A program made the translations under genes and the position numbers. The notes under the pieces were generated by a model. That model saw only the letters and a program-made list of their open reading frames with translations, had not been told where the DNA came from and ran no database searches. A stretch of DNA of 63,471 bases, filler included, from Folioceros fuciformis (lineage: Eukaryota), in NCBI GenBank assembly GCA_049999805.1. It is 14 parts of 14 records of this genome, joined end to end, with 100 filler letters (N's around TTAATTAATTAA, not from the genome) between each part and the next. Parts side by side here need not be neighbours in the genome. Positions count along the whole stretch, not along the records: positions 55,368 to 57,943 come from JBNGIO010003056.1; 13 more parts are not named here. One strand, given 5' to 3'. Position 1 is the first letter of the stretch. Each line of letters opens with the position of its first letter. Positions 3,108-61,839 of this stretch are shown here, one piece after another.

Positions 3108-3421
3108 TGTTGGTTGGGGGCAACTCCATCACTCTCACTCTCTTTCGAATCAGATAAGGGTATGGGCTCACTTGAGGTACCAATGGCTACTACGCTTCTC
3201 GATGTCATCTTGTGCAGAGTGGAGCTCACGAATTCCTCCTCTCAGGCTGAGCACAAGCAAGTTTTGAAGGCGCTGCTTTGAAGTCTGCACGCACTGAGGA
3301 TGACGGGAGTAACCCGTGGTTTTTGGGCAGCGTGCAATCATGATGATGTGTGTGCTAGGGTTTAAGCTTGGGGTTATCAAAAATAATAATGCAGTTTAAT
3401 TACTATGAGTAATGTATGTAC

Positions 3422-3521
3422 NNNNNNNNNNNNNNNNNNNNNNNNNNNNNNNNNNNNNNNNNNNNTTAATTAATTAANNNNNNNNNNNNNNNNNNNNNNN
3501 NNNNNNNNNNNNNNNNNNNNN
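3422..3521. other. Artificial contig spacer N44-TTAATTAATTAA-N44 (first of 13)
   Basis: Identical 100-nt spacers also lie at 7509-7608, 12204-12303, 18869-18968, 27580-27679, 30205-30304, 38360-38459, 39542-39641, 51296-51395, 55268-55367, 57944-58043, 59992-60091 and 62224-62323. The core gives stops in all six frames. Confidence 0.98.
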
Positions 3522-6500
3522 AGTCAGGATCTCGATCAGACGTAGGAGGACATTCCTGTTATGAGCGACAGAGGTCCAAGTTGTGGACATACGATTCGGA
3601 AGAAGTTGTGAGGGTAACCTGTAGAATCTACATTTCATTTCGACCAATTTCAAACTAGCTTTTTGGTTGATTTGGATCGATTTTGAAGCATGACGTCTTT
3701 AGAAAACGTCATGTTCAATATCGAGAAGTTAGATGGTACTAACTTCCCATTCTGGAAAGAACAAGTGTATAATGTTCTAGTACAGAAGAAGCAGATCAAG
3801 CCCATCAAGCTGCTAGGAGTGAAACCTGTTAGCATGACTCAGGATGAGTGGCAGGATCTAGATGAGCTTGCCAGGTCTACCATCATGCTAACAGTGTCGA
3901 AGTCGGTCTACTTCAACGTGAAAGACAAGACCACAAGTTTCGAGCTATGGCAGAAGCTGTGTGACTTGTATAAGAAGCAAAGTGCGGCTTCTCAGGTGTA
4001 TTGGTTGAAACAGCTGGTGGACTTGAAGATGAAGGAAGGGACGAGGATGTCTGATCATCTGAATGAGTTCAATACCATTTTCAGCCAGCTCTCATCTCAA
4101 GGTATCTCGTTCCCAGATTCCGTGAGAGCTATGTTTCTATTGGTCACATTACCAGAGAGCTGGGACACCTTCCGTACGGCTCTGAGTAATTCCGCTCCTG
4201 CCAGTGGTCTTACCGTTGTAAATGTAGAAGGTAGCCTGTTAACAGAGGAGGTGAACAGGAAGAATATGGAACCTTCGAAAGGTTCTAATGCCCTCATGGT
4301 GAGAGGAAGGTCCACTTCAAAGGGGAAGTACAAGGAGCGAAATTCTTCCCGTAGCAAATCTCGTAGTCGTAACAATGTTGAGTGTTACCATTGTCACAAG
4401 AAGGGTCACATCAGAAGGGACTGCGACAAGTTCAAGAAGGAAAAAGGCAAGGAGAAGAAGCAGAGCGACAACAAGTCAGATTCGAGTATCGAGCGTGATG
4501 AGGTGAACTTTGTTGACGATGAAGATGTTCTTATCTCTTCTTCTTTTGGTTCTGCACAACTGACAGCCATGGAGAGTCACTTATTCTCTAATTGGATAAT
4601 TGACTCTGGAGCATCTTTCCATGTTACTCCGCATAGGGAGTGGTTTAGCACTTATGATGCTACTAGGAAAGGATGTGTTCGGCTTGGAAATAACTACGCG
4701 TGCGAGATAGCAGGCGTTGGTGATGTGTAGCTGAAGTTCGACAACGGATCTTCATTCACACTAAAGGATGTCAGGCATGTTCCGAAGTTGACCAAAAGCA
4801 TGATTAGCGCAGGGCAGTTGGATGACGCTCAGCGGGCTACCACTGTTGGTTTGGAGATCGTTCTTGGAAGATCTCCAAAGGTTCTCTTGTGATAGCTCAT
4901 GGATCGAAGTGTGGCACTTTGTACTCACTTCAGGTAACCACTGTCAAGGATCATGTGATTTGTGTAGCGGAATAGCCAAGTGTTTGTTTCCTTGTGGCAT
5001 AGTCGGTTAGGACATATGTCTCAGAAAGGAATGAAGATCTTATCTCGTTTTGGTTACGTCCCTGCTCTTGACTTCTCCGATTTCTCCGTGTGTGAGCACT
5101 GTTTGTATGGAAAAGAGACGAAGTCACCACATGGAGCAAGAGGTAAACACAAAAGGTGAGGTGTTTACCTCTTGCAAGAGGTAAACACACCGTATACTCC
5201 TCCCCAGAATGGTGTGGCTGAGCGGATGAACAGGACCATCCAGGAGAGGATGCGTAGTTTGTTGTCAAACTTTGGATTGCCTAACGGATTTTGGGCAGAA
5301 GCGGTGGTTACGGCAGTGCATCTTATTAACAGATCTCCTAATAGGGCTGTGGATGAACAGGTTCCAGAGGAGATGTGGTCTGGAAAGAAACCGTCATACA
5401 AACATCTTCGAGTGTTTGGCTGCGAGGCATACTACCATGTTCCGAAGGAGTTTCGCGACAAGTTGGCTCCTAAGTCAAGAAAATGTATTTTTCTTGGCTA
5501 TGGTGAATCTGGTGAGATGGGATACCGTCTGTGGGATCCAGAAGCCAAGAGGATGGTTCGCAGCAATGATGTGTTCTTCAATGAGACCAAGATGCACAAG
5601 AAGCCTACTCCAACTGTGGAGGTGCGACGGGTGGTCTTCCAAGAAGATGGACTTGACCGTCCCGCGCAGGCTGAACATCGTGATGTGCAGGAACAAGTTC
5701 CTCCACTTGTAGACGAGGAGAGAGTGCAACCAGCTCCGGTCGAGGCGCCAGTGCTTCGTAGGTCAGAAAGGATCTCACGTCCTCCTGACAGGTATGTTGC
5801 ATCTCTTGATTATGTCATGCTGACGGATTGTGGGGAGCCCTCTTGTTACCAAGAGGCCATGTCAGTGACTGACAAAAACAAGTGGGAGAAGGCGATGCAT
5901 TCGCAGATGGATTCGCTCCATAAGAACCAAACTTGGGAGTTGGTTCGGTTGCCTAAGGGCAAGAAGGCGTTGCCATGCAAATGGGTGTATAAGATGAAGG
6001 ACATACCCCATTATGGCAAACCCAAGTACAAGGCACGATTGGTTGCTAAAGGTTTTAAGCAACAGCAAGGTATTGACTTTGATGAGATTTTCTCACCAGT
6101 TGTCAAAATGACTACCTTGAGATGTGTTCTTGGTGTGGTTGCGAGGAACGACATGGAACTTGTCCAGATGGATGTGAAGTCGGCATTTCTGCATGGTGAT
6201 CTCCAAGAAGAGGTATACATGCAGTAACCAGAGGGTTTCATTGAGAAGGGCAAAGAGAGTCTGGTGTGCAAGTTAAAGAAGAGCCTTTATGGTTTGAAGC
6301 AGGCACCCAGGGAGCGGTATTTCAAGTTCCACTCATTTATGCTTTCTCAAGGCTACAAGCGTAGCGATATGGATCATTGCCTCTATACAAAGCAAGCTAA
6401 GGATGGAAGCTTGCTCATTCTAGTCCTCTATGTGGATGATATGCTAATTGCTGGGACTAACAGTGATGAGATTTCAGCTTTGCAGTCAAAGTTGAATGGT

Positions 6501-7508
6501 CGCTTTGACATGACAGACTTGGGGGAGGCAAGCCATATTCTTTGCATGCGTATTCGTCGAGACAGACAGAAGCGTTTGATGTACTTGTCTCAGACAGAAT
6601 ACATTAACAAGGTGCTTCAACGTTTCAATATGGAGAAGGGGAAGGTCTTAAGTACTCCTTTGCCTCCATATGTGAAACTTTCGAGCAAGGATTTCCCAAG
6701 TTCTGCGGAGGATAAAGCTGAAATGGAGAAGGTTCCATACTCATCAGCTGTAGGGAGTTTGATGTATGCAATGATTGCTACACGTCCTGACATTGCTTTT
6801 GCAGTGGGAGTGGTTAGCAGGTTCAAGTCAAACCCTGGCAGGAAGCATTGGGAGGCAGTGAAAGGAGTTATGAGGTATTTGAATGGTACAAAAGCTTTGT
6901 GCTTATGTTTTGGTAGTGAAGATGCATCTGTAGTGGGATATACGGATGCTGATTATGCAGGGGATATGGACAAAAGGAGGTCCACATCAGGTTATGTCTT
7001 CATATGCACTGGAGGGGCAGTCTCATGGCGATCTCGTTTGCAATCGTGCATAACGCTATCTACCACAGAGGCCGAGTATGTTGCAGCGACTGAGGCTTGC
7101 AAGGAAGCCATGTGGCTTACTCGTTTAGTGAGAGATTTGGGGATCAAGGGTGAGCTGCCAGTGTTGCATTGTGATAGCCAGAGTGCTATCCAGTTGGCGA
7201 AGAATCCAGTGTTTCATGCGAAGACCAAACATGTGGAAGTGAAGTATCACTTCATTCGAGAGGTGTTGGAAGACAAGAGGGTACAGCTTGTCAAAGTTCA
7301 CACCAGTCAGAACCCTGCAGATGTTCTTACCAAGGGGCTCTCTACGGAGCAATTCGCACAAGCTCGGACACTCATGGGCATGAGCTAGACCACTCTCTTA
7401 TGAAGGTAAATTGGCCTTTAAGTGGGAGGTTGTAGGGTTATTAAAGCCCAATGTGCTTAGGCTAATGTGTTTAGTCTAAGATTAGTGTCTAGTTAATGTG
7501 CTTAGACT
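3522..7508 (+). mobile_element. Ty1/Copia family A (Tnt1/Tork-like), nearly full internal region plus start of 3' LTR
   Basis: Contains leader, gag-pol 3690-7388, PPT AAGTGGGAGG at ~7420-7429 and an LTR starting TGTAGGGTTATTAAAGCCC at 7431. Confidence 0.93.
3690..7388 (+). pseudogene. Copia gag-pol polyprotein, disrupted
   Basis: Motifs: IEKLDGTNF, knuckle [61 protein letters not shown] and ADVLTK. Stops occur at 4728 and 6225, and the integrase core is partly deleted near 5150-5190. Confidence 0.92.
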
Positions 7509-13251: not shown

Positions 13252-15860
13252 TGTTAAGATAACAAGCCCTGTCATACTTAGGGTTGTATGTATTTAATTT
13301 AGATTAAATATGTTTAGTTAAAGTGAAACAACATGACTCTAGGTCATGAATATTTAAACACATGTTTTGTAAACATTTTGTATTAATTATTTTATTCATT
13401 CAATTTTGGCAACAATTGTTTGCACAACTTTCACAAATGCACACCGCGCTACTCCTGTTGGAAAACAGTGAGTCCCAAGATCAATCTCTGGTTCAATACA
13501 TTTAGATTGATAGCCTATACATACATATATAGCATTCAAGCATGACAATAACTTGATGTGGATAAACAATATCTTGACCATGGTATTATCCTATATATCC
13601 TGGGATATACTTACGACATTCTAGTCTAGATGTGTTGCCACAAAATCCTATGGATTTCTAACACCTCCCACTCAACATATCGACGATCCAACCTATAAGA
13701 CTTACTCAATTAACCCTAACATCTTGCTAAACTTCATATGATTCTCTAAGGGTAGACCTTTGGTAAGAACATCAGCCAACATGTCTTGTGTAAGACAGTA
13801 AGCTAATTTTATTTCTTTAGATTGGACTTTCTCCCTAATGAAGTGATGCTTAACTTCAATGTGTTTCATCCTTGCATGAAAAATAGCATTCTTGGCCAAA
13901 TAAATGCGGCCTTGATTGTCATTGAAGATGAGGGTTGCACCCTTCTGCTTGAATCTCGTCTCTTCGAGCAATCTACGAAGCCATATGGCTTCCACTGTTG
14001 CAGCTGAGGTTGCTATGTACTTTGCTTCTATAGAGGATAGTGCTACTATGGGTTGACGTCTACTACTCCATGAGATGGCTCCCCCAAATAGCATGAAGGC
14101 ATATCCAATGGTAAACTGGCGGGTATCAACGTCTCCAACCCAATCTGAATCACAAAATCCAACAACCTGGGCTTCTTCATTTTGCTTTTGGTAAGTCAAT
14201 TTCCAGTGCTTTGTACCCTGCAAATACATGAAAATTCTCTTGACTACTTGATAATGTTGTTGTTGAGGATTGACCAATAATTGACTCACAATCCCCATTG
14301 CCTTTGCGATGTCTGGCCTTTTTCTTGTTGCCAAATAGGTGAGATAGCCAACGGCACACTTGTAAAGATTTTTGTCTATTTTTTCTGTCACGTTTTTGTT
14401 TGTAGGATTTGCTTCCTTTGATAGTTTCTCGTTGAGGATCATTGGCGTTCTTGTCGGTTTACAATCTTGCATTCCAAAACGCTCCAGTATGTTCTCCACA
14501 TATGTTTGCTGACTTAAGGAGATTACTCTATTGATCCTTTGTCTTTCCACCTTTATTCCTAAGAAATAATGGATCTCGCCCATGTCTCACATATCACTTT
14601 CTTTGAGATTCCTCTTAATTGAGTTTGAAAGTTCCACATCGTTGCTAGCAATGATGAAGTCATCCATGTACACAAGAATGATAACAAAAGATTCTCCCAC
14701 TTGCTTCACATATATATTCCAATAAGCACTAGTTCTCTTGAAATCTTTAGACTGTAAGTGATTATCGAGCTTACGATACCAAGCAAGGGCTCATTGTTTA
14801 AGACCATATAGAACCTTCTGCAGCTTACAAACTTTGACTTCTTGTCCTGGTACCTCAAACCCTTCTGTTTGTTCCATATATATTTCTTCGTATGGGTCAC
14901 CATTCAAAAAAGTGGTTTGGACATCCATATGATGTATCTCCATATTGAAAGCAGCTGCGATAGCGAGAAGGGCTCGGATAGATGCTATCTTAGCAATAGG
15001 AAAGAAAGTGTTGGTATAGTCCACATCGAGGGCTTGTGTATACCCTTTCCCCACTAACCTCGCCTTATATTATTCTATGCCACCATCAGCCTTTCGCTTA
15101 GTCTTGAAGGTCCATTTAGACCCTATGCTTTTCCTTCCAAGAGGTAGAGTAGTGTTTGTCCATGTTCTATTTTTGATAAGTGAGTTATACTCGTTGTCCA
15201 CAGCTTTTCTCCATTCCTTTGCTTTTGGACCTTGTAATGCTTTTGTCAGGCTTTGGGGTTCTTCAATATCTATAAAACATGCTAGCTCCTCCTATACTTA
15301 TCCATTGATAGAGTCTAAAAGCTTTCGTGAAGGTTTCCTTTCTCAAGTTGATCTTCTTAAGATTGGTTGCGTCTCTGGAATACTTAGTTCTGCATTTTCA
15401 TCGTCAATTGTGACAATTCCTAGAGGTGTATTCGCTTCTTCAACTGCAATGACAATAGGAGTGTCTCTCTCTCCCCCCTCTATGTCAGAAAGTTGAGAAG
15501 GTGCAACAGACAATGGGGTAAATTGTCTAGGGCTGTCAAGAGATGTAGAATCCCCGGTGTCGTCTATGTCAGACGACAATGAATCTTGCGAGATAAAGGA
15601 TGAAGAAGTGGGGTCTCCCGTTCCACTAGTAGGTTCAAAAACCTCATGAAAAACAACATCCTTGCTAAAAAATATCTTCTTTGTGGTAGGATAGTATTAT
15701 CAATAACCTTTAACCTCATTGGAATAACCAAACATAAGGCATTTGATGCCTTGTGGATCCCGCTTGGTCCAGTTGGTCTTTGGCACATGAGCATAAACCG
15801 TGGATCCAAAGATCCGTAGATGACTAATGTCAGGAATTATGCCATGTTAGGGTTATTTGG
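13252..15860 (-). mobile_element. Copia 3' half (post-integrase, RT, RNase H, PPT, 412-bp 3' LTR)
   Basis: RT HHMDVQTTFLNG and RNase H FCDSDWVGD...ADVLTKGL. The PPT AGTGGGAGG lies at 13664-13672, and the LTR 13252-13663 has TGTTA...TAACA ends. Confidence 0.9.
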
Positions 15861-15889: not shown

Positions 15890-18294
15890 CCTATGGTGCA
15901 ACGCCAGACAGGTCACTTGGTGAAGTGCTTTAGGACTAATAATGGAGGAGAGTTTATAGGCCAGAAGTTTGATGACCTCTTCCAGCAGTTTGGAATTATT
16001 CGCCAACTCTCCGTGCCCTGCATGCAGCAACAAAATGGTGTGGCTGAGAGGAAAAATCAAACACTTATGGGAATGACTAGATGTATGTTATCCTGTGCAA
16101 GGGCTTCACAAGAGTTACTGGGCAGAAGCAGTTGTGACGGCAACTTACTTGTTGAATAGAGTCGTCACATCTGCTTTACCTAGAAAAACGCCTTATGAAG
16201 CCTTGTGGGGAAGGAAGCCAAGCCTTTCCCATCTCAAGGTCTTTGGGTCACCAACCTTTGCCTTCATACCTGAGGCAAAGCGTAAGAAGTTAGATGACAG
16301 AGCTAAACAGTTAGTATTTGTTGGATACTCAAAGGAATCAAAGGCCTACAAACTGTTTGATCTAGGAACTTCCAAAATAACTCTATCTAGAAGTGCAACT
16401 TTCAAGGAGCTTGTTCTCCCATAGGCTGATGTGGACTCTGGAGGTCCAGGCAGTTCGACTCGTTCCAAATCACTGCTGGACGAGCAATCTCTTACAGACC
16501 CAGTTCACTATCCTCAGTCTAATGGAGAGTCACCACAAGCTGATGATTTTGCAGCTATGGATGGTATCTTAAGTCCTCCTTTGCCAGCTGCTCAGCCTGA
16601 ACAAATTATCCCTCAACAGGTCGTTGCTGATGATTCTTCAGTTAGCGTAGATCATTCCGAGCATGAGGACAAAGAAGATGAATCACTTGCAGATGCTGCT
16701 TACCTTGAATCAGATATGGATGCACATGCTGCAAGTGTTGTCAGCCATAGTTATGCTGGCTCTCTTGGATCTCTTGGTTCGGATGACCCCCTGAATACAG
16801 ATCATACAGTTGAAGAGGGAGCACCTCTTGCCACTGCAGTGGGGGATACCTCTTCTCGATATCCTACTGATGAATGCCGTCCAAGGGTAGAGTGGCAGGA
16901 ACCCCTTTATCAGGCTATTGATTTTCGCAGACCAACAACTCATGTGGCAGATCTGCATGTACCTGAAGTTAGGCCTAATCCTCATAGTTATAAAGAGGCA
17001 CTGGAAGGGCATGATGCTAATCATTGGAGGACTTCAATTGATGATGAATATAACTCGTTGGTGAAGAATAATACTTGGGAACTTGCAGACTTGCCTCCTG
17101 GCCGGAAACCTATCACCTGCAAGTGGGTTTTCAAAACTAAGTTAAAGGCAGGTGGCACAATTGCTGGGTATAAACCACGACTAGTAGCTCGGGGTTTCTC
17201 ACAAATACCTGGAATTGATTATGGAGACACCTTTTCTCTTGTGGTTAAGCCTCCATCTGTTCGGATTATGTTGCCCATGGCTGCTCATTTTGACCTTGAA
17301 CTCCACTAGATGGATGTTTGTACAGCCTTTCTTCATGGGGAACTTGAGGAGGTTTTATATATGGATCAGCCTGAAGGGTTCGTTGATAAACAATTTCCTA
17401 ACAAAGTCTGCAAGTTGTTAAAAACCATTTATGGGCTCAAACAGAGCCCTCGTGCTTGGTACAAAAGGATCATGAAGTTTCTCAAAAAGCATGGCTTTGT
17501 ACAATCTCCAGCAGATTCCAATGTTTTTTACCTCGATTCTGACGGGTTGTTCGTCATTCTTGCTCTTTATGTCGATGATGCAATTTTATTGAGCAATCAC
17601 CCTGAGCAGCTTGACGTAGTGAAAGCCCTTCTTCGGTCTGAGTTTGAAATGACAAATCAGCGACCTCTTGCTTTCTGTCTCGGGATCCAAATTCTCAGGG
17701 ATAGGTCACATGGGACCATCATTTTACACCAAACCAAATACATCAAAGAAATTCTTAAGAGGTTTAATCTGGATTCTGCAAAGCCTATTTTAACACCTAC
17801 AACTGTGGGGGAAAAGCTTACCTCGGCCCAATCACCACATGATGCTATTGATGAGGCTATGATGACTGGAGTCCCGTATGCTGAGGCTGTAGGTTGTTTA
17901 ATTTTTCTAGCCAATTGGACTCGCCTTGATATTTGCAACTCTATTAGTGTGGTCTCACAGTTCATGAAGGCACATGGCAAAGCACATTGGGGTGCTGATA
18001 AACGTATCTATCGCTATCTCCAAGAGACAATGCAATATGGCCTACACTACACCAGAACTAACAAGCTTGAGTTTGACTTATCTGCATTCGCTGATGCTGA
18101 TTGGGCGTCTGATGTGGATACTAGGAAAAGCCTATTAGCTCATGTTTTCTTGTTGGCACAAGGTGCTGTTAACTGGTCTTGTAAGAAGCAGACCTCTCTT
18201 GCACTGTCCTCGACTGAAGCTGAGTATAAGGCCTTGACAGATGCATGTAAGGAGTTAGAATGGGAACGACAATTTCTAGATGCTGTACACTTAC
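15890..18294 (+). mobile_element. Copia integrase-RT-RNase H fragment, degenerate, interrupted by a family A insertion
   Basis: Motifs RTNNGGEF, QQNGVAERKN, HLKVFG, LYVDD, FADADWASD and SSTEAEY. It is cut at 18294 by an LTR. Confidence 0.92.
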
Positions 18295-18868
18295 TGTAGG
18301 GTTATTAAAGCCCAATGTGCCTAGACTAATGTGTTTAGTCTAAGATTAGTGTCTAGTTAAGTATCATTAGTTGAGATTAGCTTAAGCTAATCTCTAGGAA
18401 GCTTCTTGTGCAGCTTCCTGTGGGCTTCTTGTGAAGCTTCCTAGGGAGCTCTTCTAGAGGGTATAAATACCCCCTTGAGCTCCCTTGTACGTGGGACTCT
18501 ATTGTGAGAGTGTGACCTCTCTTTCTCCTCTCCTCCTTGCCTCCTCCTCTCCTCTCCTTCACCATGTAGCTCCTAGAGCGTTCCTTCAAGTGGTATCAGA
18601 GCTTGGGTGTGGAGCAAGGGTGATGGTGCGCTGAGGCTTTGGAGTGATGGCAGCATCGGAGTGAACTGGACCTTGTGCGACACAAAGGAGGAGTACGGGA
18701 CGCTCAGAGCGCCGGTGAAAAGGGGGCACGAGCGTAGAGGGCGATTCGATTCGGCCAGCCCCGGCAGCGGGCGCGAGATCACGACCAGCCCCGGCCGCGG
18801 GCACCGGATGGGGGGCTAGGCCCCGGCCGCGGGCACCGGATGGGGGGCTAGGCCCCGGCCGCGTGCGT
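18295..18868 (+). mobile_element. Copia family A 5' end: 294-bp LTR (18295-18588), PBS (18591-18602), GC-rich leader
   Basis: TGTAGGG...TTCA LTR with TATAAAT at 18462 and PBS TGGTATCAGAGC. A 32-bp GC tandem repeat lies at ~18789-18868. Confidence 0.92.
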
Positions 18869-20313: not shown

Positions 20314-23300
20314 TAATCCTTGCCTAGCTTTAGACAATGTGCTGAAATGGATTTCCTGCTGTCCGTGTCTGATGCCCAATCGGCATCACAGAAACAGGTT
20401 AGCAAAAGTCTTTCAGGCCTCTTGGTGTACATGAGTCCCATGTTTGGGGTCCCTCCCAAATAGCGGAGAATACGTTGTGCAGCATGCCAGTGAGCTGTTC
20501 CATAATTACTCAGGAACTAGGATGTGATGCCGATAGAGTGTGCTAACTCCGATCTCGTCCAGTTTCGGAAATATATGCATACTCCCACTGCCAACATGTA
20601 CGGTATTTTCTCCATCTCTAGCCTTACTTGTTATGTTTTAGGACACTACTCAAGGGACAACTTGTCTCCCACTACCATAGGAGTTGCAGCAGGTTTTGCA
20701 TTTTCCAGTCTAAACCTTGCTAGCACTTGCCTGACAAACTGAGCCCGGTGCAGGAAAATGTTGTGTCTTGACAGATTCTGGACGATCTGTATGCCTAGGA
20801 AGAATGTCAGCTGTCCAAGTTCAGACATGTCAAACTCGGCAGTCAGGAAACCTTTGACTCTAGCCATGAGCTGAGGGCGGCTAGCAACTATGACGGCATC
20901 GTCCACATACAAAGCTAAGTAAACGACCCCACTTTTATCATGTAGCATATAGACATTGCTATTGGCTTCACTATGAACAAAGCCACAACTTCTCAAATAG
21001 TTGTCTATGCGATTATACCACTCACGTGGTGATTGTTTGAGACCGTAAATGGTTTTTACCAGTCTGCAAACCTTGTTGGGGTGTTTTGTGTTGATGTAGC
21101 CCTCAGGCTGTCTCATGTAGATATTTTCCTCAAGCTTGCCATTAAGAAACGGCGGCTTGACGTCCATGTGCTGCAGGTTGTAGTCATACTAGGCAGCTAA
21201 AGCAAGCAAGGTGCGGATGGAGGTAGCTCGGACTACGGGGAGAATGTCTCCGTGTAGTCCAGCCCTTCGACTTGGCTGTAGCCTTTCGCCACCAATCTGG
21301 CTTTATAGCGTGCTACTGATCCATCTGGGTTCAACTTTTTCTTGAAGACCCACTTGCACATTATTGCTTTCCTTTCAGGAGGTAGGTCTTCGAGGACCCA
21401 AGTCTTGTTGTCAACCAATGACTTGTACTCTTAATTTATTCCTTCCATCCACTGCTTGCCTTTTGTTGGATGATTGATTGCTTCTTGGCAAGAAAGAGGC
21501 TCGCTCATGTCAAGTGGTGTGCTCCCATCGTGAACCATGAAGGTGGCAGGTGAGAATGGTGGCTGCAGCCATTCCGACCGTGATGACGTCCGCCTCCTTG
21601 TGCCAAGGTCTGTCCCTCGTCGTAGGGTTTCTGAAGGAGCTGCAGCATCTTCTTGTGGTGAAACATCAGAGGGACCAGGTGAGTCAGCACGGTCCAGATC
21701 CTCTTGCATTTGTTCAGCTGTTTCTGCTGACCCAATTGGCTGTCCATCCAGGTCATCTCTTAGGAAAGTGCTGAGCTCATCAGGCGGTGGAGGTGGTGTG
21801 ACAGGGACAGCTGGCTGAGAAGCTATAGGTAGGTATGGCTGTGACCCAAGTTCTTCTACAGATGGCTGATTGTAGGTCTCACTAGAGGACATCTCTTCTA
21901 CTGACTTATTAGTGGGATGCAGAAGGATGTGCTCATTGGAAATGACACTACGAGCATGTGTGATGAATCTAGTGTCTGGGTCAAACAACTTGTAGCCTTT
22001 TATACCTTCAGTGTACCCTATGAAGACAAACTTGTGGGCTTTGTAGTCTAGTTTAACCCTTTGATATTCTGAGAGATGTGCATATGCTGGGCACCCGAAG
22101 ATTCTAAGGTGATTAATTCTTGGTTTATGTGATGTCCATCTCTCAAATGGGGTGGTTCCCTTGGACACACTTGTGGGCAGTCTGTTGATCACATAGACTG
22201 CTATAGAGACTGCCTCTCCCCAGTAACCACGTGACAGGCCTGACAATTTCAGCATGGACTTTGCAGTCTCCTGTAGGCATCGATTGGTCAGTTCAACAAT
22301 TGGATTCTGTGAAGATGTGTAAGGTACGGTAAGTTGCCTTAATATCCCCAGCTCTTTGCAGTAATCCATAAATGCCTCTGAACAGTACTCCCCTCCATTG
22401 TCGCTGCCCAGGATTTTTATGAGCTCCCCAGTCTGGTGTTGGGCGAAGCTCACGTACTCTTAGAAGCAGCCCAAAGTCTGGCTCTTCAGCTTAAGAAGGT
22501 ACACGACCACATACCTGCTCCAGCCGTTAATAAATGTAAGAATGTATTTAGCCCCGCCGAAGGTGTTTGTGGACATGGGACCACATATGTCTGAGTGCAC
22601 AAGCTCCAGTATCTTGTTGGCTCTTGTAGGATTAGCATCTATGAATGGCTGGCTGTGATGTTTGCCGAAAATGTAGGCCTCACAGAACCGTTTGTCGGCA
22701 CACTACAGCACAAACTTTTCTCGGTACAGGTTGTTGGCATTCACCATGTCCTTCAGCTTGTCAAAATTTACATGACCAAGTTGGTAGTGCCAAAGCATGG
22801 CATCTTGTTTTTGGAGGTCAGCTTGACTGACATTGACGAGTGGCTGACACAGCTTAGAGGCAAAGTCTAGCTTATAGATGTCATTAATAGGTGTTCCTAC
22901 AGCTTTGACCTTGTTGTTTGACTTAGGGTCTGTAATGATGCAGGTGTCGCCATTGAAGAAGATATTTAGCTATGTGTGTTTGGAAAATCTGAGAAGAGCC
23001 ACTAAGTTCTTTACGACACATGGGACATGAAGGACGTCCCGAAGCTGTATGGTAGTTTTATCTTGCAGCAGCACTGCTACTATTCCCATCCCAACTATGG
23101 GGCATGCTCTCTCATCTCCCATAAGCACAATCTGACTAGGTGGTAGTTTTGTGTATTCACTGAAGGCTTCCTTAGTGTGACAGCAGTGTGCAGAGGCTCT
23201 TGAATCTAGGAACCATGCATCTCTGTCTAATTTTGATGACACTAAACACACAACTAGCAAGGTGTTGGACTTACGTTGTGCGATGTTCATCTCTGCAGGT

Positions 23301-49324: not shown

Positions 49325-51295
49325 TGTTGTGATGTGATGTGGAATAACAAACGGTATTAAGAAATAATTATTTTCGGTTCATTAAACAGCCTTTACTAGC
49401 TTTAAACCTAGTTCGTAGATTGGTTAATTATTTATTATATTTATTAGGGTTATGAAACGGTTATGCATCTCTTGCTCATATGCACACACACTGATACGAA
49501 ACGTTATTCCTTAATCGATGTTTTCTTCTTGCTCTTCCCGTCGCACTCAGCGATGCACATCTGGTCTCGTTGATTTCGTTTATGGTATCAGAGCTCTATT
49601 TCTAATGTCTGGAAGCATCTAGTGAAATATATAACTGGGCACAAGATCCAGTGCTCATCATCCTGATGGCCACTGCATCCCGCGCCCACAATATGCCACA
49701 CTACCTGAAGACAAACATTATATCAACGGCTTCCTGGAAGAATCAATGGCTATTCTCTTCTACTCTAATAGAAGAGGCCTACCCTACTTGCAGCAGCGAC
49801 CACAACCTGGTCTGACGCCAGACACCTCTTCTCCTGCTGCATCAAGCCGAAAGGAGCGAAGTCAAGGACTTTGGAAATGACAAGAAGTCATAAATCGCAA
49901 ATCTGCAGATGCAATTTACCTCAGGCACCAATTTGTTGTTCAAAATGCTGTAGTCTCCATGTAGGGTGTGTCAGCACTCGTTTTTCCTGCACCTCCCGTC
50001 ATTCTGAACCACCTGTTTCATGCTCTCCGCACTTTTGTAAACAGCACGACTGCCAACCTCGCTTCACTAAGCATAAACACGATTTGCCGCCTATTTACAT
50101 TCAGCGATTGGAATCCACTCTCCACAAACTCAGGGTCTTAGAGAAAGATGTCCATAAACATCTCTGCAAATCCAAATAAGAGAACATCTCATTTAGGCAG
50201 CAATTAGGTCGGTTAGAAAAGCGAGTCCAACAATTGACAATTACATTGCAGGAATCCTCTCAAGAAACATATGCATATTCCCTTTCGACCCCACCTGTCT
50301 CAAGCGTAGATCCAGTGGTGTCCCTTGTTCATGATCTGCAACATGAGTCATCAAAAATGCAAAGGCCCTATACGCCACTGCCAGAACCAGCCATGCTTGG
50401 ATCCTGCACCCCAATTCCAGAACCCATAGAGTTCATACTTGAAGGTATTGCCTCCCACTTGCGCAATACCACTGCCGTCCAGTGAGATGGTGCATCTGCA
50501 ACCTGGTTCCTGCACCCAATCACCACGTTGCGTTAGGATCTAAACAACGCAATAAGAATGTCAATCAAAATCGAGTTCAAGGACAGGGACAGGTTCAATG
50601 GATCAGACTTTGCAGTCTGGCAGATGCGGATGATAGCAATTTTTGAAGAGCACGAGCTTATGAACATCGTAGATGGCTCACTTGGACTTCCTTCGTCCAA
50701 CCCAATACCACCTGCAGGACAACCTGTAGTCGATGTTATTTCAGCCTGGCATAAAAAGGACAAGAAAGCCAGAAATATCTTACTTTCAGCACTCGACAGA
50801 AATATGATTCAGCACACGCAGGGACAAACGACTGCGCATGATGTCTGGAAAGTTTTTCTTGATATGTTTGCGGCCAAGGACTCTATGTCTCTTATAAACT
50901 GTACACGTATGTTTTACTCACTTCGAATGAAAGAAACTGAAACAGTGGAACATCATCTCCACCGTTTTCGTACCTTGCGGGCTCGTTTGGCTGCAGCAGG
51001 AGAAATCTTGACCGAGTTGAAGGCAGCTACTGTTCTGTTGACGTCCTTACCACCAAGTTTCAAGACGTTTATTAGTTCACAATCAACCTTGTTAAGACAA
51101 CTGGGTTCATCTGTAACTCTGTCAGAGGTCATCGGAGCCCTACTGGAAGAGGAATCCAGTAGGATTGATACTGATAGACCGTCTACATCAAATCAACAGC
51201 ATGTGTTATATACCTCTCGCAATTGAGGGAGAGGTAAAGGACGAGGATAGAATTTTGCTCCTCGACGTCCATATCTAGGACACCAAAACACTTAT
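49325..51295 (+). mobile_element. Copia lineage B 5' end: LTR ~49325-49582, PBS 49583-49594, upstream coding region, gag
   Basis: PBS TGGTATCAGAGC. Gag at 50558 (KIEFKDRDRFNGSDF) is closely similar to the Gag at 9023. Confidence 0.88.
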
Positions 51296-52279
51296 NNNNN
51301 NNNNNNNNNNNNNNNNNNNNNNNNNNNNNNNNNNNNNNNTTAATTAATTAANNNNNNNNNNNNNNNNNNNNNNNNNNNNNNNNNNNNNNNNNNNNGTTGC
51401 TTGGTTGGTGAGCGCAGTGGCTTGATGAAGGTCATTACGAGTATGAGTATAGGTCTGTGAAAGGAGAGGGTTGGTCGGTGAACGTTCCTGAGGTGAAACG
51501 ATATCCCTGAAATCTTGCTGGCTATAGCCAGACTTTGAATGGCCATACAAGTCGCAGCGGCTTCGTTTAAGGCTCGCATCCAGAACTGCCCTAAGAGCAG
51601 GAGGATGGCTATTAAGGAGATGCATTATATACAAGCAAGCACCTGTGTGCGCCTAGCTACAGGAAGTTATGTACTAAAGAAAATGTGCGTGTTTGTCGTT
51701 TGTCGACCAGTGACGTCAGTGTCATGTGTACCAAAGCGGAGCCGTGCCGTGAAATACAAGGCTTGAGCTTGTCATGTTTGGATGCAACTGAGATACGCAC
51801 CTGGGAACCAGTCGACTGCGTGCGCAGTATTCTGCAAGAAGAGCAAAGCTCAAGGTGCAAGGGAGGGCGATGTAGGAGCACATTCTCTGCGATCTCTTCT
51901 GCGCTCCGTTCCGCTCCACCAGGAAATGGAATGCCACCTCAGCGGTGGAGACAACAACTTGCTTTCCCTGATGTAGGACGGGGATGGATGGACTTCACCA
52001 CGCGCATACAACCTAAAAGCAAAAGCAATAGCAGTGCTGTCTGTCGTCCACCACACTTAAGCACTGCCCACTGCTTGTTTGTTTCTCACGGTCGACTCTT
52101 ACAACTGCAACTACCAGCTTCCAATGGATGCAAACGGTACCCATTCCTTACAACATTGTCTCTGGTCGACCCTCGACATGATCTCCGTGGAATTGTGGCA
52201 GTACCTGTGCACGCGTGAATTGTTGGTTGTCTCCCTAGGAGTATTGAGAAGACCAAACGCCTAGAGCTAGCATCTCTAG

Positions 52280-54356
52280 CATGACAAGCCCATCACATTA
52301 CTGTGTGGTCCTCACATGACAACAGCATCTTCTCGGCCTCATCTCAATGGCGTGCGCGACCAAGAAGATCAATCATGCAATTTGCAATGCTCAAGAGTGT
52401 CCTTGATGCCATTCTGTTCAGCCATGGAATCAAAGTGCTTGCGACCCGTTCATCACGCTAGTGCTCAACACTACGTTATCCAGCGGTCCGCTGTCAACCA
52501 TCTGTGAGCGTGGTGGCTGCATGCCCCTCTATAAAGCACCAGTGGTTGCACAGGCCTTCAGAAGGCAAGCAAAAGTAACATCAGCAGCCAAAATGAGGCC
52601 GGCCTCCTCCACTCATCCATACAAGCGCCTCATGACCTATTCCTTGCTGTGCATGCCCAGGAATCAGGGCATTCCATGTCACTACATTCTTTGTGGCCAA
52701 GCTGTCGAGTACCTGCCGTGCATCCCCGAGGTCTCCACATTTTGCATACATGTCCACCAAGCATTGGCCCACTACTGCGTCATCCACGATTCCTCTTTCC
52801 ACAACCTGCGTCTGCACCTGCACTTGCCTGCCCTTCTGTAGGTCACCAGCGCTTCCACAGCCCTTCAGAAGGCAGGCAGGAGTAAGAGGTCCATGTTACC
52901 ACATCCTTCGTGGTCAAGCTGTAGAAAGCATGACGTGCGTCTTTCAGTTCACAACACTTTGCATACATGTCAACGATGGCATTGCCCAACACTGCGTCAT
53001 CCAGCAGTCCTCTTCGGAGAATCTGTAAGTGCAGCTGCCTGCCCTTCTGTAAGGCACCAGTGCTCCCACAGGCTTTCAGAACACAAGTAGAAGTAACAGA
53101 GTCAAACAAAAACAGGCCCTCCTGCTCCCTTTGTCCATACGGAACAAGGACCTCATGTCCCAGTCGTTGCTGGACATACCCAGTTAGCAGGGCTTTCCTT
53201 GTCACCACATTCTTCGTGACCATGCTGTCAAAAACCTGGCGTGCATCTTTTATGAAGTTCACCACATTTTGCACATCCAGATATCAGAGCATTTTTTGTC
53301 ACTTCATCCTTCGTGGCCATGCTGTCAACAACCTGCCGTTCCTCTCCCAGTTCGCCACATTTTGCGTACATGCCCACCAGGCAGTTGCCAACAAACAAGT
53401 CAGCAGGAATGCCACTGTGCAGCACATCACTGTGCACTTTTCTGCTAGAATCCAAGTCGCCGGCAAATGCACAAGCTTGAAGGGAAGATACGAAGACGTG
53501 AGCAACCGTTACGGCCTTCAGTCTTGACCTATGCATCTCATAGTACAATTGTATGGCCTCCTTAGGTTTCCCACGCTGAGCATGTGCAGAGACTATGGAA
53601 CACTACATGAAGAGATCTGGTTTGCCCAACCTGGTGACCACATCCATGGCCTCCTGCAGACTACCTCGACATGCATACATGCGCAAAATATGGTTCCCCA
53701 AGTACTCATCCGACTCGTATCCAAGTTTGATAGAGAGGTCATGAACTCTTCGCCCCACAACCAAGTCCTTCTTAGCTGTACACATAACAAAAGTCTCTTT
53801 CCGCCCGAGATTCCAGGGCTTTAACAGCCTCGGAAATTTTACTCTGCTGACACAACGCCATCGCCGTTACAACCTTTACGACGCCCACTTGTTATCCTGC
53901 ACTCGTGCCAGGTTCAAGATTATCCGGAGAGCCCGACTTGGAAGGAGGGACACCATGGCCCATCTGAAAATCCAAAGAAACGAGCTGCTCATTCACCCAA
54001 CCTGGCTTAATCATGCTATTTAGCCACACGACTTCGCCAGACCCCTTACGACGGACATCAGGAGAACTCGAGCACCTCTCTTCTCGTATGTTGTCCCACC
54101 ACATCGTAGGATTCTGAAAAAATTCATGCCACATGTGGTCCAGCCCCTTGCGACGACCATCGTTGGAGAATCCGTCCCCACTCAGACATTGTTTCGGAAG
54201 TGGAAGTGCTGGGATCCTTAAACTGCTGTGCCTGGAGGATTTGTTGGCCAGGTGCCAACTCCCTGAGACTAGGTGAGAGGGAACTCCTCGTAGAATCCCT
54301 GTACACACTCTAATTTCGTGGGTGCACAACGGATCTGGCTGCCATACAGTGGACAT
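52280..54356 (-). pseudogene. PDF-motif plus PLS-class PPR pseudogene, paralog of 55368-57192
   Basis: Homologous presequence and WHEFFQNPTMWWDN...PD..RKGSGEVVWLN..KPGWVNEQL (53982-54134). P/L/S motifs are broken by frameshifts and stops, with L2/S2 remnants near 52300-52450. Confidence 0.88.
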
Positions 54357-54910
54357 AATTCCGAGACGCTATGGGAAGATGAGTCTAATACAAACAGGCC
54401 ACGGAAGGATCCCATGGTACTTTGCTTGTCATCCACACCATACGAGCTGCCTCCGATGATCCCGAACTTGGAGAACTTGATTGAAGCAACACTGTATATC
54501 CGGACTGCCTGCTAAGCACTTCGATGCAAGCAAGCAGATTATCTGAGGACTGTGTCCCGTAACATGCATGCTATGGCCGCAGATGAAAGCTATGTAGTAA
54601 ACCCTTAATGAAAAGAATATAGTTTTTCTACCACAGAGACTGCTCCACAGCGGCAGGTCTTCATCACAAGCTTTTTGTTTCGTTCTCCATGCTAGGCGCT
54701 GCTTGCCGAGTCCCGCAACTGAATGCGAAAACGGGAGGAGAGAATAGCAGTGTCACTGCGACCGAGCCGCTTGTTGGCCGCAGGGGTCAAAGGATCCTGC
54801 GCACCACGTTTCAGAAGTAGCAGGCTAACAAAAACGAGCGACTAAGCGGACGAGTACGCAGGAATCTGCAGACGCTGCTGTTTGTGACGGGACGATCGCC
54901 TTGGAGCGGG

Positions 54911-55267
54911 ATGTTCAACAAGAAGGAGATTTTGAAGTTGGCCAAGGGCTTCAGAGGAAGGTCCAAAAATTGTATCCGGGCGGCGAGGGATCGTGTGGAG
55001 AAAGCGCTGCAGTATGCCTACAGAGATCGGCGCAACAAGAAGAGGGACATGAGAGGTTTGTGGATTCAGCGGATCAATGCCGGGAGTCGACAGTACGGGG
55101 TAAGGCTGCTGGCTTGTAGAGCTGGGAAATCGTGTTGCTGAAATACCTTGGCCGTAACTTGGCGTGTGCCTTTCAATTTGCTCCAGGTGAACTATGGGCA
55201 GCTCATGTGCGGCTTGAACAAGGAGAACATTCAGCTTAACAGGAAGGTTCTTTCTGAGCTTGCTATG
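54911..55267 (+). CDS. rpl20: Nuclear-encoded mitochondrial ribosomal protein L20 (partial); exon 54911-55099, intron 55100-55186, exon 55187 to gap
   Basis: [21 protein letters not shown]...[25 protein letters not shown] splices (GT..AG, phase 0) to [27 protein letters not shown]. Confidence 0.92.
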
Positions 55268-55367
55268 NNNNNNNNNNNNNNNNNNNNNNNNNNNNNNNNN
55301 NNNNNNNNNNNTTAATTAATTAANNNNNNNNNNNNNNNNNNNNNNNNNNNNNNNNNNNNNNNNNNNN

Positions 55368-57192
55368 GCACATATGCAGGCGCCTGCTGAGGATCCAGCC
55401 TAACAATCCTTTCAAAACACCACATTCCCCTCGCTATATCACCATGGATTTTACAAGCGTTCAGCAACGAGACATATCCAACGACGTCACTTTGGCCGTC
55501 ACAGGACAAAAGCATCTTTTGTGCCTCATCTAAAAGACCCGCGCGCCCAAGAAGATCAACCATACAATTGCGATGTTCAATTGAAGGTCTGATGCCATGC
55601 TGTTCAGTCATGGAATGAAAGTGCTTGCGGCCCTCATCCACCAGTCCCTCATGACTGCATGCCACTAGAACGCAAGCAAAAGTAGCACCATCAGGCTGAA
55701 TACCCGCAGCTAACATCTCTTTAAAACAGGCTAGTGCCTTGTGACCTTCATCACAATTACCATACCCGGATATCAGGGCATTCCAGGTCACCACATCCTT
55801 TGTGGCCATGCTGTCAAAAACCTGGCGTGCATCTTTCACCTCACCACATTTTGCATACATGTCCACCAGGGAGGTGCACAACACTACGTTATCGAGCATT
55901 GCTTTTTTGACAAGAAGTGAGTGCAGCCGTCTACCTTTTTGTAAAGCACCAGTGCTTCCACAGGCATTCAGAAGACAAACATAAGTAACATGGTTAGCCA
56001 AGAGCAGGCCCTCCTGCTCCATTTGTGCATACACACCAAGAGCCTCATGTCCAAGACCTTGCTGGGAATACCCAGCTATAAGGGCGTTCCATGTCGCCAC
56101 GTTCTTTACTGGCATGCTGTCAAAAACCTTGCTTGCACCTTTCAGTTCACCGCATTTTGCATACATGTCCACAAGGCAGGTGCTAACAAACAAGTCAGGA
56201 GGAATGCCACTGTGCAACACATCACAGTGCACCTTTCTCCCAGATTCCAAGTCGCCCGCAAATGCACAAGCTTGAAGGACAGCCACAAAGACGTGAGCAT
56301 CGGCCTTCACTCCTGACCTACGCATCTCATGGTACAGTTGTATGGCCACCTCAGGTTTCCCATGCTTGGCATACGCAGAGATTATGGAAGACCACATGAA
56401 GGCATCTGGTTTGCTCACCCTGGTCAGCACGTCCATGGCCTCTTCTAGCCTACCTCCACATGCATACATGCGCAAGAGATGGTTCCCCAGGTATGCGTTC
56501 GACTCGTACCGAAGTTTGACACAGAGATCATGAACTCGTAGCCCCAAAACCAAATCCTTCTTAGCTGCACACAGTTTCAGCACAGTTCCAAACAGGGACA
56601 CAGAAATAGGAGAGTGTGTCTGCGCCAGATATTCCAGGGCTCCAACGGCCTCAGAAAGCTTCCCCTGCTGGCACAACGTGCTCACGGTCACAGTCGTTAC
56701 GGCTCGGCTTTCCGATCCTGCACACCTGCCAGATTCAGCCCTGTACGAAGCGCTGGACCCGGAAGAAGAGGCACCGTGAGCCCCCCTTTGCATATCCAAG
56801 GAAACGAGCTGCTCATCAACCCAAGCTGGCTTGAACGCGTCGTTCAACCATAGCACCTCCCCGGACCCCTTACGCTGAAAGTCAGGGGAACCGGAACTCC
56901 TCTTATCTTGTCTGTTGTCCCACCATAAGGTAGGGTCCAGAAAAAACTGTTGCCACAAGTACTGCTGCTCTTGCTCTTGCCCCTGCCTCTGACGACAACC
57001 ATGGCTGGATAACCCGTCCACACCCACACAATTCCTCGAAAGTGGAAGCGCTTGGCTCCTGACACTGCTGCACCTGAACGCTTGCTTGAATGCCGGGGAA
57101 TGACTCCCTAGGGTGCCGTGAAAAGGAATTCCTCGTAATATCCTTAAGGTGCACTCACAAATTTGTTGGGTCCCCAATAATCGTCGCCGCAT
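55368..57192 (-). CDS. Organelle-targeted PLS-E class PPR protein with N-terminal OSB-type PDF motif (3' end lost in gap)
   Basis: Intronless open frame with an R/S-rich presequence from ATG 57192 and a PDF motif at ~56806-56958. It continues L-S-P-L-S-P-L-S-P2-L2-S2-E1 and the start of E2. Confidence 0.9.
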
Positions 57193-58043
57193 CGCCGTAG
57201 AATGAGAACAAATCTTGTCCCGAGTCTGTCCCGAGTCTGTCCCGAGTCTGTCCCGAATCGAGTCTCGTACTCGTACATCTGGCGTGGAACACGAACCAGA
57301 ACGGCGAACGCATACAGCATCCGCCAAAGGGATGCGGAGTGTGAAGCTCTGAACATGGGCGTGGTGTTGCTTCACAACAAGTAACACCCCCTTACAACGG
57401 GGGTGGGGCAGAACCAGAAGCCAAAACAAGGGTCAGGTTTAAACACCGGACGCAGCACTAGGCCTCCAAGTAGCCCGCCCTCCTCTTCTAGGAGGACTCG
57501 CAGCCAGCACCCTTGCTGCTGCTGCTCTTTATTTAAAATCACGAGTCAACAAGAACATACAGAGCTAGAGGGTTAGAGAGAACTCCCCATCTTTGCCTAA
57601 GCTAGGAGTTTAGCTCTCCCTCCTCTTGGCCTCCTCCCACAGCTCCTTCACAGCACCTTTCATGTGCTCTCACAGCCCAAGCAACACATGCTCTCAAGGC
57701 ATAGCCCAAGCACCCAGTGCTCTCAAGGCTTTGAGGAGATACTCATCTCAACTCCACTGAACTTCCCTTAGCCCTTGGCTAGGTCCCCTTTTTATACACA
57801 AGCTCAAGTCACTAACTTAGCAACTACTTACTTAAGCACTTACTTAAGCCTTAAGCTATTATTCGCTACCACACACTTTTTCCTAGGGCTGCATGCTTCT
57901 CATGCTTTTAGTAACCTGCTCTCTACTAAACATGCCTTTGCATNNNNNNNNNNNNNNNNNNNNNNNNNNNNNNNNNNNNNNNNNNNNTTAATTAATTAAN
58001 NNNNNNNNNNNNNNNNNNNNNNNNNNNNNNNNNNNNNNNNNNN

Positions 58044-60091: not shown

Positions 60092-61839
60092 TGAAAAAGT
60101 AGCGAGAGCCTCCAAGGGAGGGCTCATGGATTTTTCCAGATATATCGGCATGCACTAATTCCAGCACTTCTGTGGCTCTGTGTGCAGAGGCATTCGGAAA
60201 AGGTGACTCCTTTTGTTTGGCCAGTATGACGACTCGCAGACAAGTAAATGCTTGAAGCATTTAGGAAGAGGCTCCTTGTGACATTCGGTGACAGACATAT
60301 CAATGAGCTTAGCCCTATTAACGTGACCTAGTCTAGCGTGCCATAACACTGCCTCCTGTTGTGCACTAACTGTATTCAGTGTGGTTGAGTGAGCGACAGG
60401 CTGGGGAACGACACCAGGGCCGCAACTGATGTTCAACTGATACAGATCGTGATCTAAAAATACCTTTGAAGACTCATGTATCTGGGTATGCCTTTCTGTA
60501 GAAGGAGCAGTGGCTAGAATCAGCACGCATACATAAGGTGCGAAGGCGGAGGAGCTGGCTCATGGACATGAGATTTTTAGCCATACTTGGGACATACAAG
60601 ACATCACTCAAACTAAGGTGTGTACCATCTTGCAGCCGAAATATGCAAGTACCTTTGCCATCAATGCGCAGACTGGTTGTACTTTGCTCATCTCCGAGTA
60701 GCACCTTGTCACTAACATGACTAAGGTTAAGGGTAGTAAACAACTCCCTGTCCTTGCAGATATGAGTCGTGGCTCCGGAATCCAAGTACCAGCTGCCATC
60801 ATCGTTTAAGGAACTGGACAAGCACGCAGTAAGAATCTTAACTGGCGCCTTTGTTTCTCCAGAGTTCTTTTCCTTGACAGCAGAGTTTGCCTTTGGCTGT
60901 CGCTGTGGCTCACCTGCCTTCTTTCTTCGGCATTCTCTTGCCCAGTGGCCAGGGGTGCCACACCAGTTGCACAATCCTGGTCTCTTAGCTGAACTGCTGG
61001 ATGGAATAGTCCGCCCAAAAAAAGCCTCCAGGTCCAGCCTGGTTACTTTCCCCTTTGAATTTCCCCTTTCCTTTGAGAAAACGAGAATTCACAGCTAACA
61101 CTCGCTCTGCCTTGTTCTTAGGAACATGACCAGAGAGAGTGCGTGCCTGTTCTTCCTGGTAGAGAGCGCCAATGATGTCCTCAACAGTGGGGGCAGCAGT
61201 AGCGACAGCTCCAGCAGCAGCAGGCTTAACAGGGCCATTCTGGGCTGTGACGAAATTCTGATATGAGGGTGGGAGGCTAATAAGGAGCTGGGATACAGCT
61301 TCGACTTCCGGCATCTTATTTCCAGTCAGCGACGTGATCTGGGCACGCAGATGTCGGAACTTGCTGGTATGGACAGCAGTCTTCTCTCCCTCCTTCATTT
61401 TCAAGGCGTAAAATTCCATTCTTACAGCAGATAGGGACATCATGTTAGTTGAGTGATAAGTGGTTTCTAACTGATGCCATACGGCCTCTGCTGTGTCCAA
61501 GAACTCAATATCAGGCACAAGATCTGCATCCAGGCCATTGATAAGGATAGCCATGGCAATTCCATTGTGATGTAGCCACTTGGCGTGGTTGTCAGGGTCT
61601 GTGGTCGGATCAGGTTTCTTGAATGTGCCATCTAGGACTGGCCAGAAGCCATGAGCCGACATTATGGCTTTCATGCGCACTCTCCATATAAGGTAACCAC
61701 TTCCCTTGAAGCGATCCTTCTCTTTTAACTCAGAAGTAAAAGTTAATGTAGGACTTGTAGGGCTTGGAGCAGCCATCACAGATAAAGGGGAATACAACCA
61801 GGAAAAGTAGTCGTCAATGTCAAAATCACTAAAGGACAT
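60092..61839 (-). mobile_element. Copia (lineage B-like) gag, protease, GAG-pre-integrase, integrase start
   Basis: ELKEKDRFKGSGY, CNWCGTPGHWAREC, WYLDSGAT, LWHARLGH and LELVHADISG, with frameshifts. Confidence 0.9.

Follow-up and report, generated by a model that had tools for sequence, protein, structure and literature searches.

The window analysed here is a stretch of 63,471 nucleotides from the genome assembly of Folioceros fuciformis (GCA_049999805.1). Its minus strand carries a reading frame (55368–57192) for a pentatricopeptide repeat (PPR) protein with, at the N-terminus, the PDF motif known from OSB proteins, plant organellar proteins that bind single-stranded DNA (ssDNA). This PDF-PPR fusion is real, old and common, and combines two known modules in an architecture that is apparently undescribed. 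The initial annotation of this DNA knew of no functional description of the fusion, and full-text searches agreed with this, returning papers on the PDF motif in DNA maintenance only. No published link between the PDF motif and PPR proteins was found by these searches, though an earlier mention may exist.

The frame opens with an ATG at 57192 and stays free of stops as far as the first N, at 55367, over 608 codons and one base. Because the contig ends at this run of N's without a stop codon, the apparent end of the gene in E1 is an assembly artefact, and what the locus holds of this intronless nuclear gene is its 5′ three quarters. The annotated start is required for the PDF motif to be included, as the next methionine is found only at residue 134. 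The gene was divided as follows, where pLDDT is the per-residue confidence score of the structure prediction.

55368–57192, minus strand: partial coding sequence of a PDF-PLS PPR protein, 3′ end missing (open frame; Pfam PPR match, E = 7.9e-58; collinear with database protein P0116)
56980–57192, minus strand: presequence-like N-terminus, residues 1–71 (composition and low pLDDT)
56788–56979, minus strand: PDF motif domain, residues 72–135, with its core, residues 79–129, at 56806–56958 (hidden Markov model (HMM) of OSB PDF motifs only)
56701–56787, minus strand: Ser/Gly-rich linker, residues 136–164, joining the PDF domain to the PPR array (pLDDT below 50 at 141–161)
55486–56700, minus strand: PPR array of 12 motifs, residues 165–569 (motif lengths, Pfam matches and helix pairs in the model)
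55369–55485, minus strand: E1 motif, residues 570–603, with five residues of E2, cut off (aligned to residues 553–591 of P0116)

The first 70 residues are basic and rich in Ser and Thr (11 R+K, 2 D+E, 11 S+T), and from this composition residues 1–71 are probably an organelle transit peptide. The PDF motif that follows had been placed at 56806–56958, and it was indeed found there in frame, at residues 79–129. A six-frame scan of the window for WW[DE]N gave two sites only, one in this motif and one at 54101. For comparison with OSB proteins, a PDF HMM was built from 181 PDF segments of 77 OB-fold-bearing (OSB-type) proteins and from no others. The initial annotation had put its assignment up for comparison with an OSB-derived profile, and the window motif (72–135) matched this one with 75.2 bits (E = 2.3e-16 at a library size of 1.84e9). 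The conserved PDF positions were all kept (17/17), including the W, F, P, WWD.R, K, PDF, K, LW and P.WV elements. Judged by this profile, the segment and the OSB PDF motif are truly homologous.

Relatives of the N-terminus were collected with phmmer, using the first 154 residues as query against 1.84 billion representative proteins. This gave 543 matches at E≤1e-3, 132 at E≤1e-10 and 14 at E≤1e-30. The best 150 of the 543 always aligned within query residues ~29–153 and had up to 13 motif repeats per protein. One of the matches, P0023 (E = 3.5e-24), carries the annotation ‘protein OSB1, mitochondrial-like [Populus nigra]’ and has a weak Pfam SSB match followed by two motif copies. An OB-fold region homologous to that of P0023 was present in 77 of the best 150 of the 543 matches and a PPR array in 13, with neither in the remaining 60.

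Several other searches gave no result for this region. In a Pfam scan of the window protein only PPR/TPR families were returned, all downstream of residue 165, and the N-terminus stayed blank since no model of the PDF motif exists in Pfam. Homology searches by word index, with the N-terminus against longer proteins and with region 60–140, found no match, a limit of that method given the 543 matches obtained with HMMER. An ESM Atlas search with residues 60–140 yielded no usable match, and a PDB sequence search with the N-terminus a single chance match (E = 1.1). The blank Pfam scan and the null word-index and Atlas searches would fit a chance resemblance or low-complexity artefact, an explanation left with practically no probability by the E-value of 2.3e-16 against the OSB-only profile, the 543 phmmer matches and the high-confidence predicted fold.

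Downstream of the linker, the Pfam families PPR, PPR_1, PPR_2 and PPR_3 were assigned to the array with E-values from 1e-28 to 1e-58. The segmentation gave a degenerate P-like motif, L1-S1, P1-L1-S1, P1-L1-S1, P2-L2-S2, E1 and five residues of E2. The motif lengths (33/35/31/35/35/31/36/35/31/35/36/32) are typical of the PLS class, and on its motifs the window protein is a PLS-class PPR protein. The initial annotation had gone further and described a PLS-E editing-type array. The PLS array and its P2-L2-S2-E1 end are present in the same open frame, but membership of the PLS-E class is not established and does not follow, because the contig end cuts the gene in E2 and P0116 runs 162 residues further. 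The Pfam E_motif was below threshold on the truncated window protein. The residues at the PPR-code positions were ND (S1), SD (P1), TN (S1), NN (P1), TD (S1), ND (P2) and ND (S2), which under the PPR code specify roughly U-G-n-A-Y-n-G-U-n-U upstream of the editing site.

The missing end of the protein can be judged from its relatives. P0116 (753 amino acids) is collinear with the window protein, with 292/535 columns identical (55%) between window residues 76–608 and P0116 residues 81–591, and its final 162 residues are E motif and DYW_deaminase in Pfam, the E motif lying at 566–628. The complete order PDF, PPR, E, DYW_deaminase was found in P0116 and P0097, with the E and DYW_deaminase parts assigned by Pfam in a scan of 10 proteins. 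A quick IQ-TREE analysis of 38 rows and 440 PPR columns, with the PDF columns excluded, placed the window protein in a five-row clade with P0116, P0183, P0233 and P0210 (SH-aLRT 97), and P0238 and P0209 were added in a wider seven-row clade (SH-aLRT 100). The four proteins of the inner clade carry the DYW-family deaminase domain with its HxE...CxxC zinc site and have HAE and not HSE in the active site, KPA.A replacing the PG box, and a GRP end (...GGRP). The KP-type box is written ‘KPAxA’.

From the tree position and these relatives we infer that the window gene encodes a GRP-type DYW:KP factor of probable hornwort origin, its own catalytic domain lying outside the window. By the same relatives, the missing ~160 residues would comprise E2 and a DYW:KP deaminase-family domain of the GRP variant. 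The protein would be a site-specific organellar pyrimidine-editing factor, probably of the U-to-C kind. Two DYW:KP variants have been described from hornworts, GRP among them; DYW:KP proteins typically have an alanine in HxE, and designer GRP proteins reached 22–26% U-to-C editing in E. coli (PMC9478123).

The combination of PDF motif and PPR array was found in many other proteins. In 13 of the best 150 of the 543 PDF matches a PPR array is preceded by one, two or three PDF motifs at the N-terminus. Of the 120 PPR relatives closest to the window protein, 22 have a full N-terminal PDF motif and two more an N-terminally cut one. The 22 come from Diphasiastrum complanatum (12), Adiantum capillus-veneris (4), Sphagnum (4), a cluster containing Sphagnum magellanicum (1) and an unnamed source (1). 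Further fusions were seen in Selaginella (‘PPR-containing protein At3g09040-like’), Ceratopteris, Sphagnum compactum and Pteridium aquilinum. Three Pteridium entries are open reading frames (ORFs) of single transcriptome contigs, which places motif and array on one assembled fern transcript. The PDF part is N-terminal to the array in 36/36 database fusions, and the entries are annotated merely as PPR or hypothetical proteins. Both deaminase types carry the fusion, the DYW-ended type with HSE (P0097, P0249, P0276) as well as the GRP-ended type with HAE (P0116, P0183). The PDF-PPR architecture is a widespread subfamily of non-seed land plants, common in mosses, lycophytes and ferns, and is not peculiar to this locus. 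The PDF motif is missing from all 12 seed-plant entries in this set of 120 (seven named to species and five labelled ‘Gb_’); absence from seed plants is not demonstrated, as the inspection covered the best 150 of the 543 PDF matches.

A FastTree of 421 PDF segments required 12 label changes, against ~37–41 in the five shuffles shown of 200 run. One nearly pure group held 29–30 of the 41 PPR-linked segments, with weak support (34–73), and that these motifs arose only once would be a tentative reading. In some fusions two or three tandem PDF motifs stand before the array, as in P0005 (1371 amino acids), P0055 and P0265.

The PDF segment is conserved within the PPR proteins. In the 41 PPR-linked segments, 15 of the 17 core positions are kept as well as or better than in the 181 OSB segments. 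D23, K28, D35, F36, W54 and V55 have a frequency of 1.00, W11, W21, R25, L45, W46 and P52 of 0.98, and F15 of 0.93, while the flanks, the linker and the columns beside the core vary freely. Purifying selection, on which the initial annotation had made its claim depend, is indicated for the module within PPR proteins by this conservation of the core and by its decay in a pseudogene copy on the neighbouring contig, where 4 of the 17 positions were lost.

An AlphaFold2 model of the PDF region, made from a 66-row alignment, was structured over residues ~65–145, with pLDDT of 91–98 per 10-residue block over 71–140. The predicted fold consists of a helix (65–85), a small sheet and a second helix (124–145). 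In the full-length model (mean pLDDT 86) the PDF domain was again confident, the PPR helix-pair solenoid was above 90 and the linker residues 141–161 were below 50. N-terminal residues ~1–60/66 were mostly below 50 in both models. On these predictions the PDF module looks like a separate folding domain on a flexible, disordered linker of ~25 residues. Foldseek returned 0 matches for the PDF model in the PDB at E≤0.001.

With the OSB proteins the window protein shares the PDF motif of ~50–60 residues, its conserved positions and a likely organelle presequence. An HMM of 67 OSB-type sequences (151 positions), run with filters off at E≤10, gave no OB-fold match in the window protein, and no Pfam SSB match was obtained. 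The predicted structure has just ~70 disordered residues ahead of the PDF motif. As the OB fold is a defining part of an OSB protein and was searched for and not found, the window protein is not an OSB. In OSB proteins an SSB-like OB fold comes first and the motif is C-terminal and present in one to four copies, whereas here it is single, N-terminal and followed by an RNA-binding PPR array. A third group, the PDF-only proteins, has the same motif without a PPR array and makes up 60 of the best 150 of the 543 matches, with 1 to 10 copies; some short members may be fragments of OB-fold or PPR architectures. Among several PDF-only proteins noted individually (P0004, P0013, P0014, P0018 and others), some consist of 7–10 tandem PDF motifs; the PDF-only architecture is not mentioned in the literature examined. 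The known role of the motif, hitherto the maintenance of mitochondrial and plastid DNA, is widened by the PPR fusions, and the motif proves to be a mobile module present in at least three architectures.

With the GRP factors of the PPR-DYW:KP group, the window protein has in common the P-L-S triplets, the P2-L2-S2-E1 series, collinearity and its clade placement. It differs by the N-terminal PDF domain, which the literature examined does not mention for PPR editing factors. The accessory editing factors of flowering plants, MORF/RIP and the RRM-bearing ORRM proteins (PMC5295000), offer an analogy of function only, as additional and less specific binding modules that aid PPR editing factors (PMC5295000). 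They act in trans, are unrelated in sequence and belong to flowering plants, whereas the PDF module is fused in cis.

We propose, with about even confidence, that the PDF module is an extra, sequence-independent single-strand grip in a pyrimidine-editing factor, acting most simply on RNA. In PLS-DYW proteins the array binds RNA and the C-terminal domain edits. The PPR array would recognise the stretch of RNA 5′ of the target base, leaving the editing chemistry to the C-terminal domain, and the PDF module would be flexibly tethered at the array end turned towards the 5′ side of the bound RNA. In that position it could hold single-stranded nucleic acid irrespective of sequence, in the simplest case the RNA that lies upstream of the cis-element, and so raise affinity or keep the editing site unfolded. 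The module would be the in-cis equivalent of the accessory RNA-binding helpers supplied in trans in flowering plants. RNA is favoured as the ligand because this substrate is already at hand.

In plant organelles, PPR-DYW proteins provide both the specificity and the catalysis of RNA editing, and engineering is turning them into programmable C-to-U and U-to-C editors. MORF and ORRM helpers are described for flowering plants, which raises the question of how the natural factors of early-diverging land plants attain high efficiency. A conserved and separately folding nucleic-acid-binding module, fused to many of these factors, is a testable candidate for part of that efficiency.

Several observations weigh against the proposed RNA grip. 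Within the closest clade the PDF module looks dispensable on sequence comparison: the N-termini of P0210 and P0238 lack it, P0233 begins past the position where it is expected, and the motif of P0116 scores just 49.8 bits. In P0209 (797 amino acids) the motif is decayed, with its start kept and the PDF...K part lost, which suggests that this clade is still losing the module. The catalytic class of the window copy is itself deduced, its C-terminus lying outside the window, and the copy, on a 2.6-kb unplaced contig, belongs to a family of very many members, one or more of them pseudogenes, and might itself be dead past the contig end. Finally, OSB1 and OSB2 have been reported to prefer ssDNA to double-stranded DNA and RNA (PMC4166229), a preference more in keeping with a DNA tether than with an RNA grip.

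In such a tether, which the initial annotation had suggested, the PDF module would bind ssDNA in the nucleoid, such as the non-template strand of transcription bubbles, R-loops, or replication and recombination intermediates, and would gather the editing factor at the point of emergence of nascent RNA, so that editing takes place co-transcriptionally. The sole biochemistry known for the motif is ssDNA binding, reported for AtOSB1 and AtOSB2 only, for which the PDF motif of AtOSB1 is sufficient according to reviews (PMC6963530, PMC6451138) and which is preferred over RNA; the motif shares its conserved positions with OSB proteins, and the linker, if as flexible as modelled, would permit contact with DNA and nascent RNA together. 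We nevertheless consider a DNA tether unlikely, as a single PDF motif may bind weakly (OSB proteins have between one and four copies, and PDF-only proteins in many cases as many as 10) and as close paralogues are without the module or retain it in decayed form. More broadly, PDF-PPR proteins could form an ancient class of editing factors, seemingly absent from the sampled seed-plant proteins, that is anchored to nucleoid ssDNA and couples editing to transcription or recombination intermediates; we give this idea little credence. If true, the coupling would cover hornworts, mosses, lycophytes and ferns and include the poorly understood U-to-C reaction. The extreme version of ssDNA anchoring would have some PDF-PPR enzymes touch ssDNA too.

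The state of the window copy itself bears on all of these functions. Contigs of four public runs were placed on the 2.6-kb contig at ≥90% identity, and 1362, 2024, 1821 and 5726 pieces were attached per run. Bins coding for the PDF motif had summed depths similar to those of the PPR bins, where the summed depths pool paralogous contigs and so are not copy numbers, and the RNA or DNA nature of the runs is guessed. Upstream of about codon 35, in bins 57088–57345, the depth drops to the level of a single contig, and many related contigs part from the window sequence precisely at 56789, where the PDF motif ends on its C-terminal side. We interpret these patterns as a family of many paralogues, in the source species and in another one, that have the PDF-coding part in common. 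The numbers of related pieces, the pseudogene on the neighbouring contig and the remainder of the window, made up of copia retrotransposon fragments on unplaced contigs, would fit a window copy that is one of many recently amplified paralogues and is dead or dying, without function of its own and possibly truncated or broken beyond the contig end, in a family whose architecture is real. This is quite unlikely in view of the 608 open codons, the 17/17 PDF positions and the regular PPR lengths, all unlike the pseudogene, and of contigs from run X1, guessed in its RNA or DNA nature, that are identical to the window and span most of 55368–57494. It would also be compatible with the other explanations of the PDF module.

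A last alternative is a module for protein contacts or oligomerisation, through which the PDF part would recruit OSB proteins, other PDF-bearing proteins or editing factors, or would multimerise PPR proteins. The tandem arrays of up to 13 copies and the occurrence in three architectures (with an OB fold, alone and with PPRs) are the behaviour of a general-purpose module, and AtOSB2 has been reported to be a tetramer (PMC6963530). The literature attributes ssDNA binding to the motif as such (PMC6963530, PMC6451138), and the invariant Trp/Phe and Arg/Lys positions would be typical of base stacking and phosphate contacts, which makes this alternative very unlikely.

The remaining features of the window were as follows.

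52311–54356, minus strand: diverged pseudogene copy of the same PDF-PPR family, with a PDF-like motif at 53961–54146 (tblastn; separate contig, 51396–55267)
55268–55367, no strand: assembly joint of N run, TTAATTAATTAA and N run, non-biological
1997–7388, 13702–14583, 16557–18299, 21431–22369, 50558–51226 and 60985–61839: Ty1/copia ORFs

The initial annotation listed a second copy with the same fusion. It does hold a homologous PDF-like motif and PPR sequence, but it is a frameshifted pseudogene and lies on another contig. Homology to the intact copy extends from 54329 to 52311 at a DNA identity of 72–80%, and the tblastn pieces lie in frames −3, −1, −2, −3 and −1, giving at least four frame changes, with in-frame stops. 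The PDF-like motif scores 59.7 bits (E = 1.6e-11) with the OSB-only HMM, and the changed positions (4/17) include the F of ‘PDF’. The nearness of this copy to the intact gene is meaningless, since the contigs were joined artificially.

The window consists of 14 contigs of 1.1–11.7 kb, joined by spacers of the form N run/TTAATTAATTAA/N run. The linker was seen 13 times against 0 expected by chance, at 3466, 7553, 12248, 18913, 27624, 30249, 38404, 39586, 51340, 55312, 57988, 60036 and 62268, and acts as a six-frame stop linker. As the contigs are concatenated, gene order and neighbourhood across the joints are artificial. The PDF-PPR frame sits on a contig of 2,576 bases (55368–57943). Of the large ORFs scanned outside the PPR contigs, all (10/10) were Ty1/copia pieces (gag, RVT_2/RT, SH3-like integrase domain, Pol beta-barrel), and no PPR sequence was found within the window beyond the two PDF-PPR contigs. 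The genomic context is a bin of repetitive, unplaced contigs.

Upstream of the gene, a perfect 11-base tandem repeat of 3.7 copies was observed at 57216–57256, 24 bases before the start codon, and more short tandem repeats lie at 57638–57853 of the same contig. The upstream part of this contig, 57346–57943, is repeated in two DNA-like runs under the same organism label, with a summed depth of ~170–1800 against ~13 for single contigs. The repeat is far weaker in run X1 and absent from run X12 of the second species, and 57346–57943 is probably a lineage-specific dispersed repeat.

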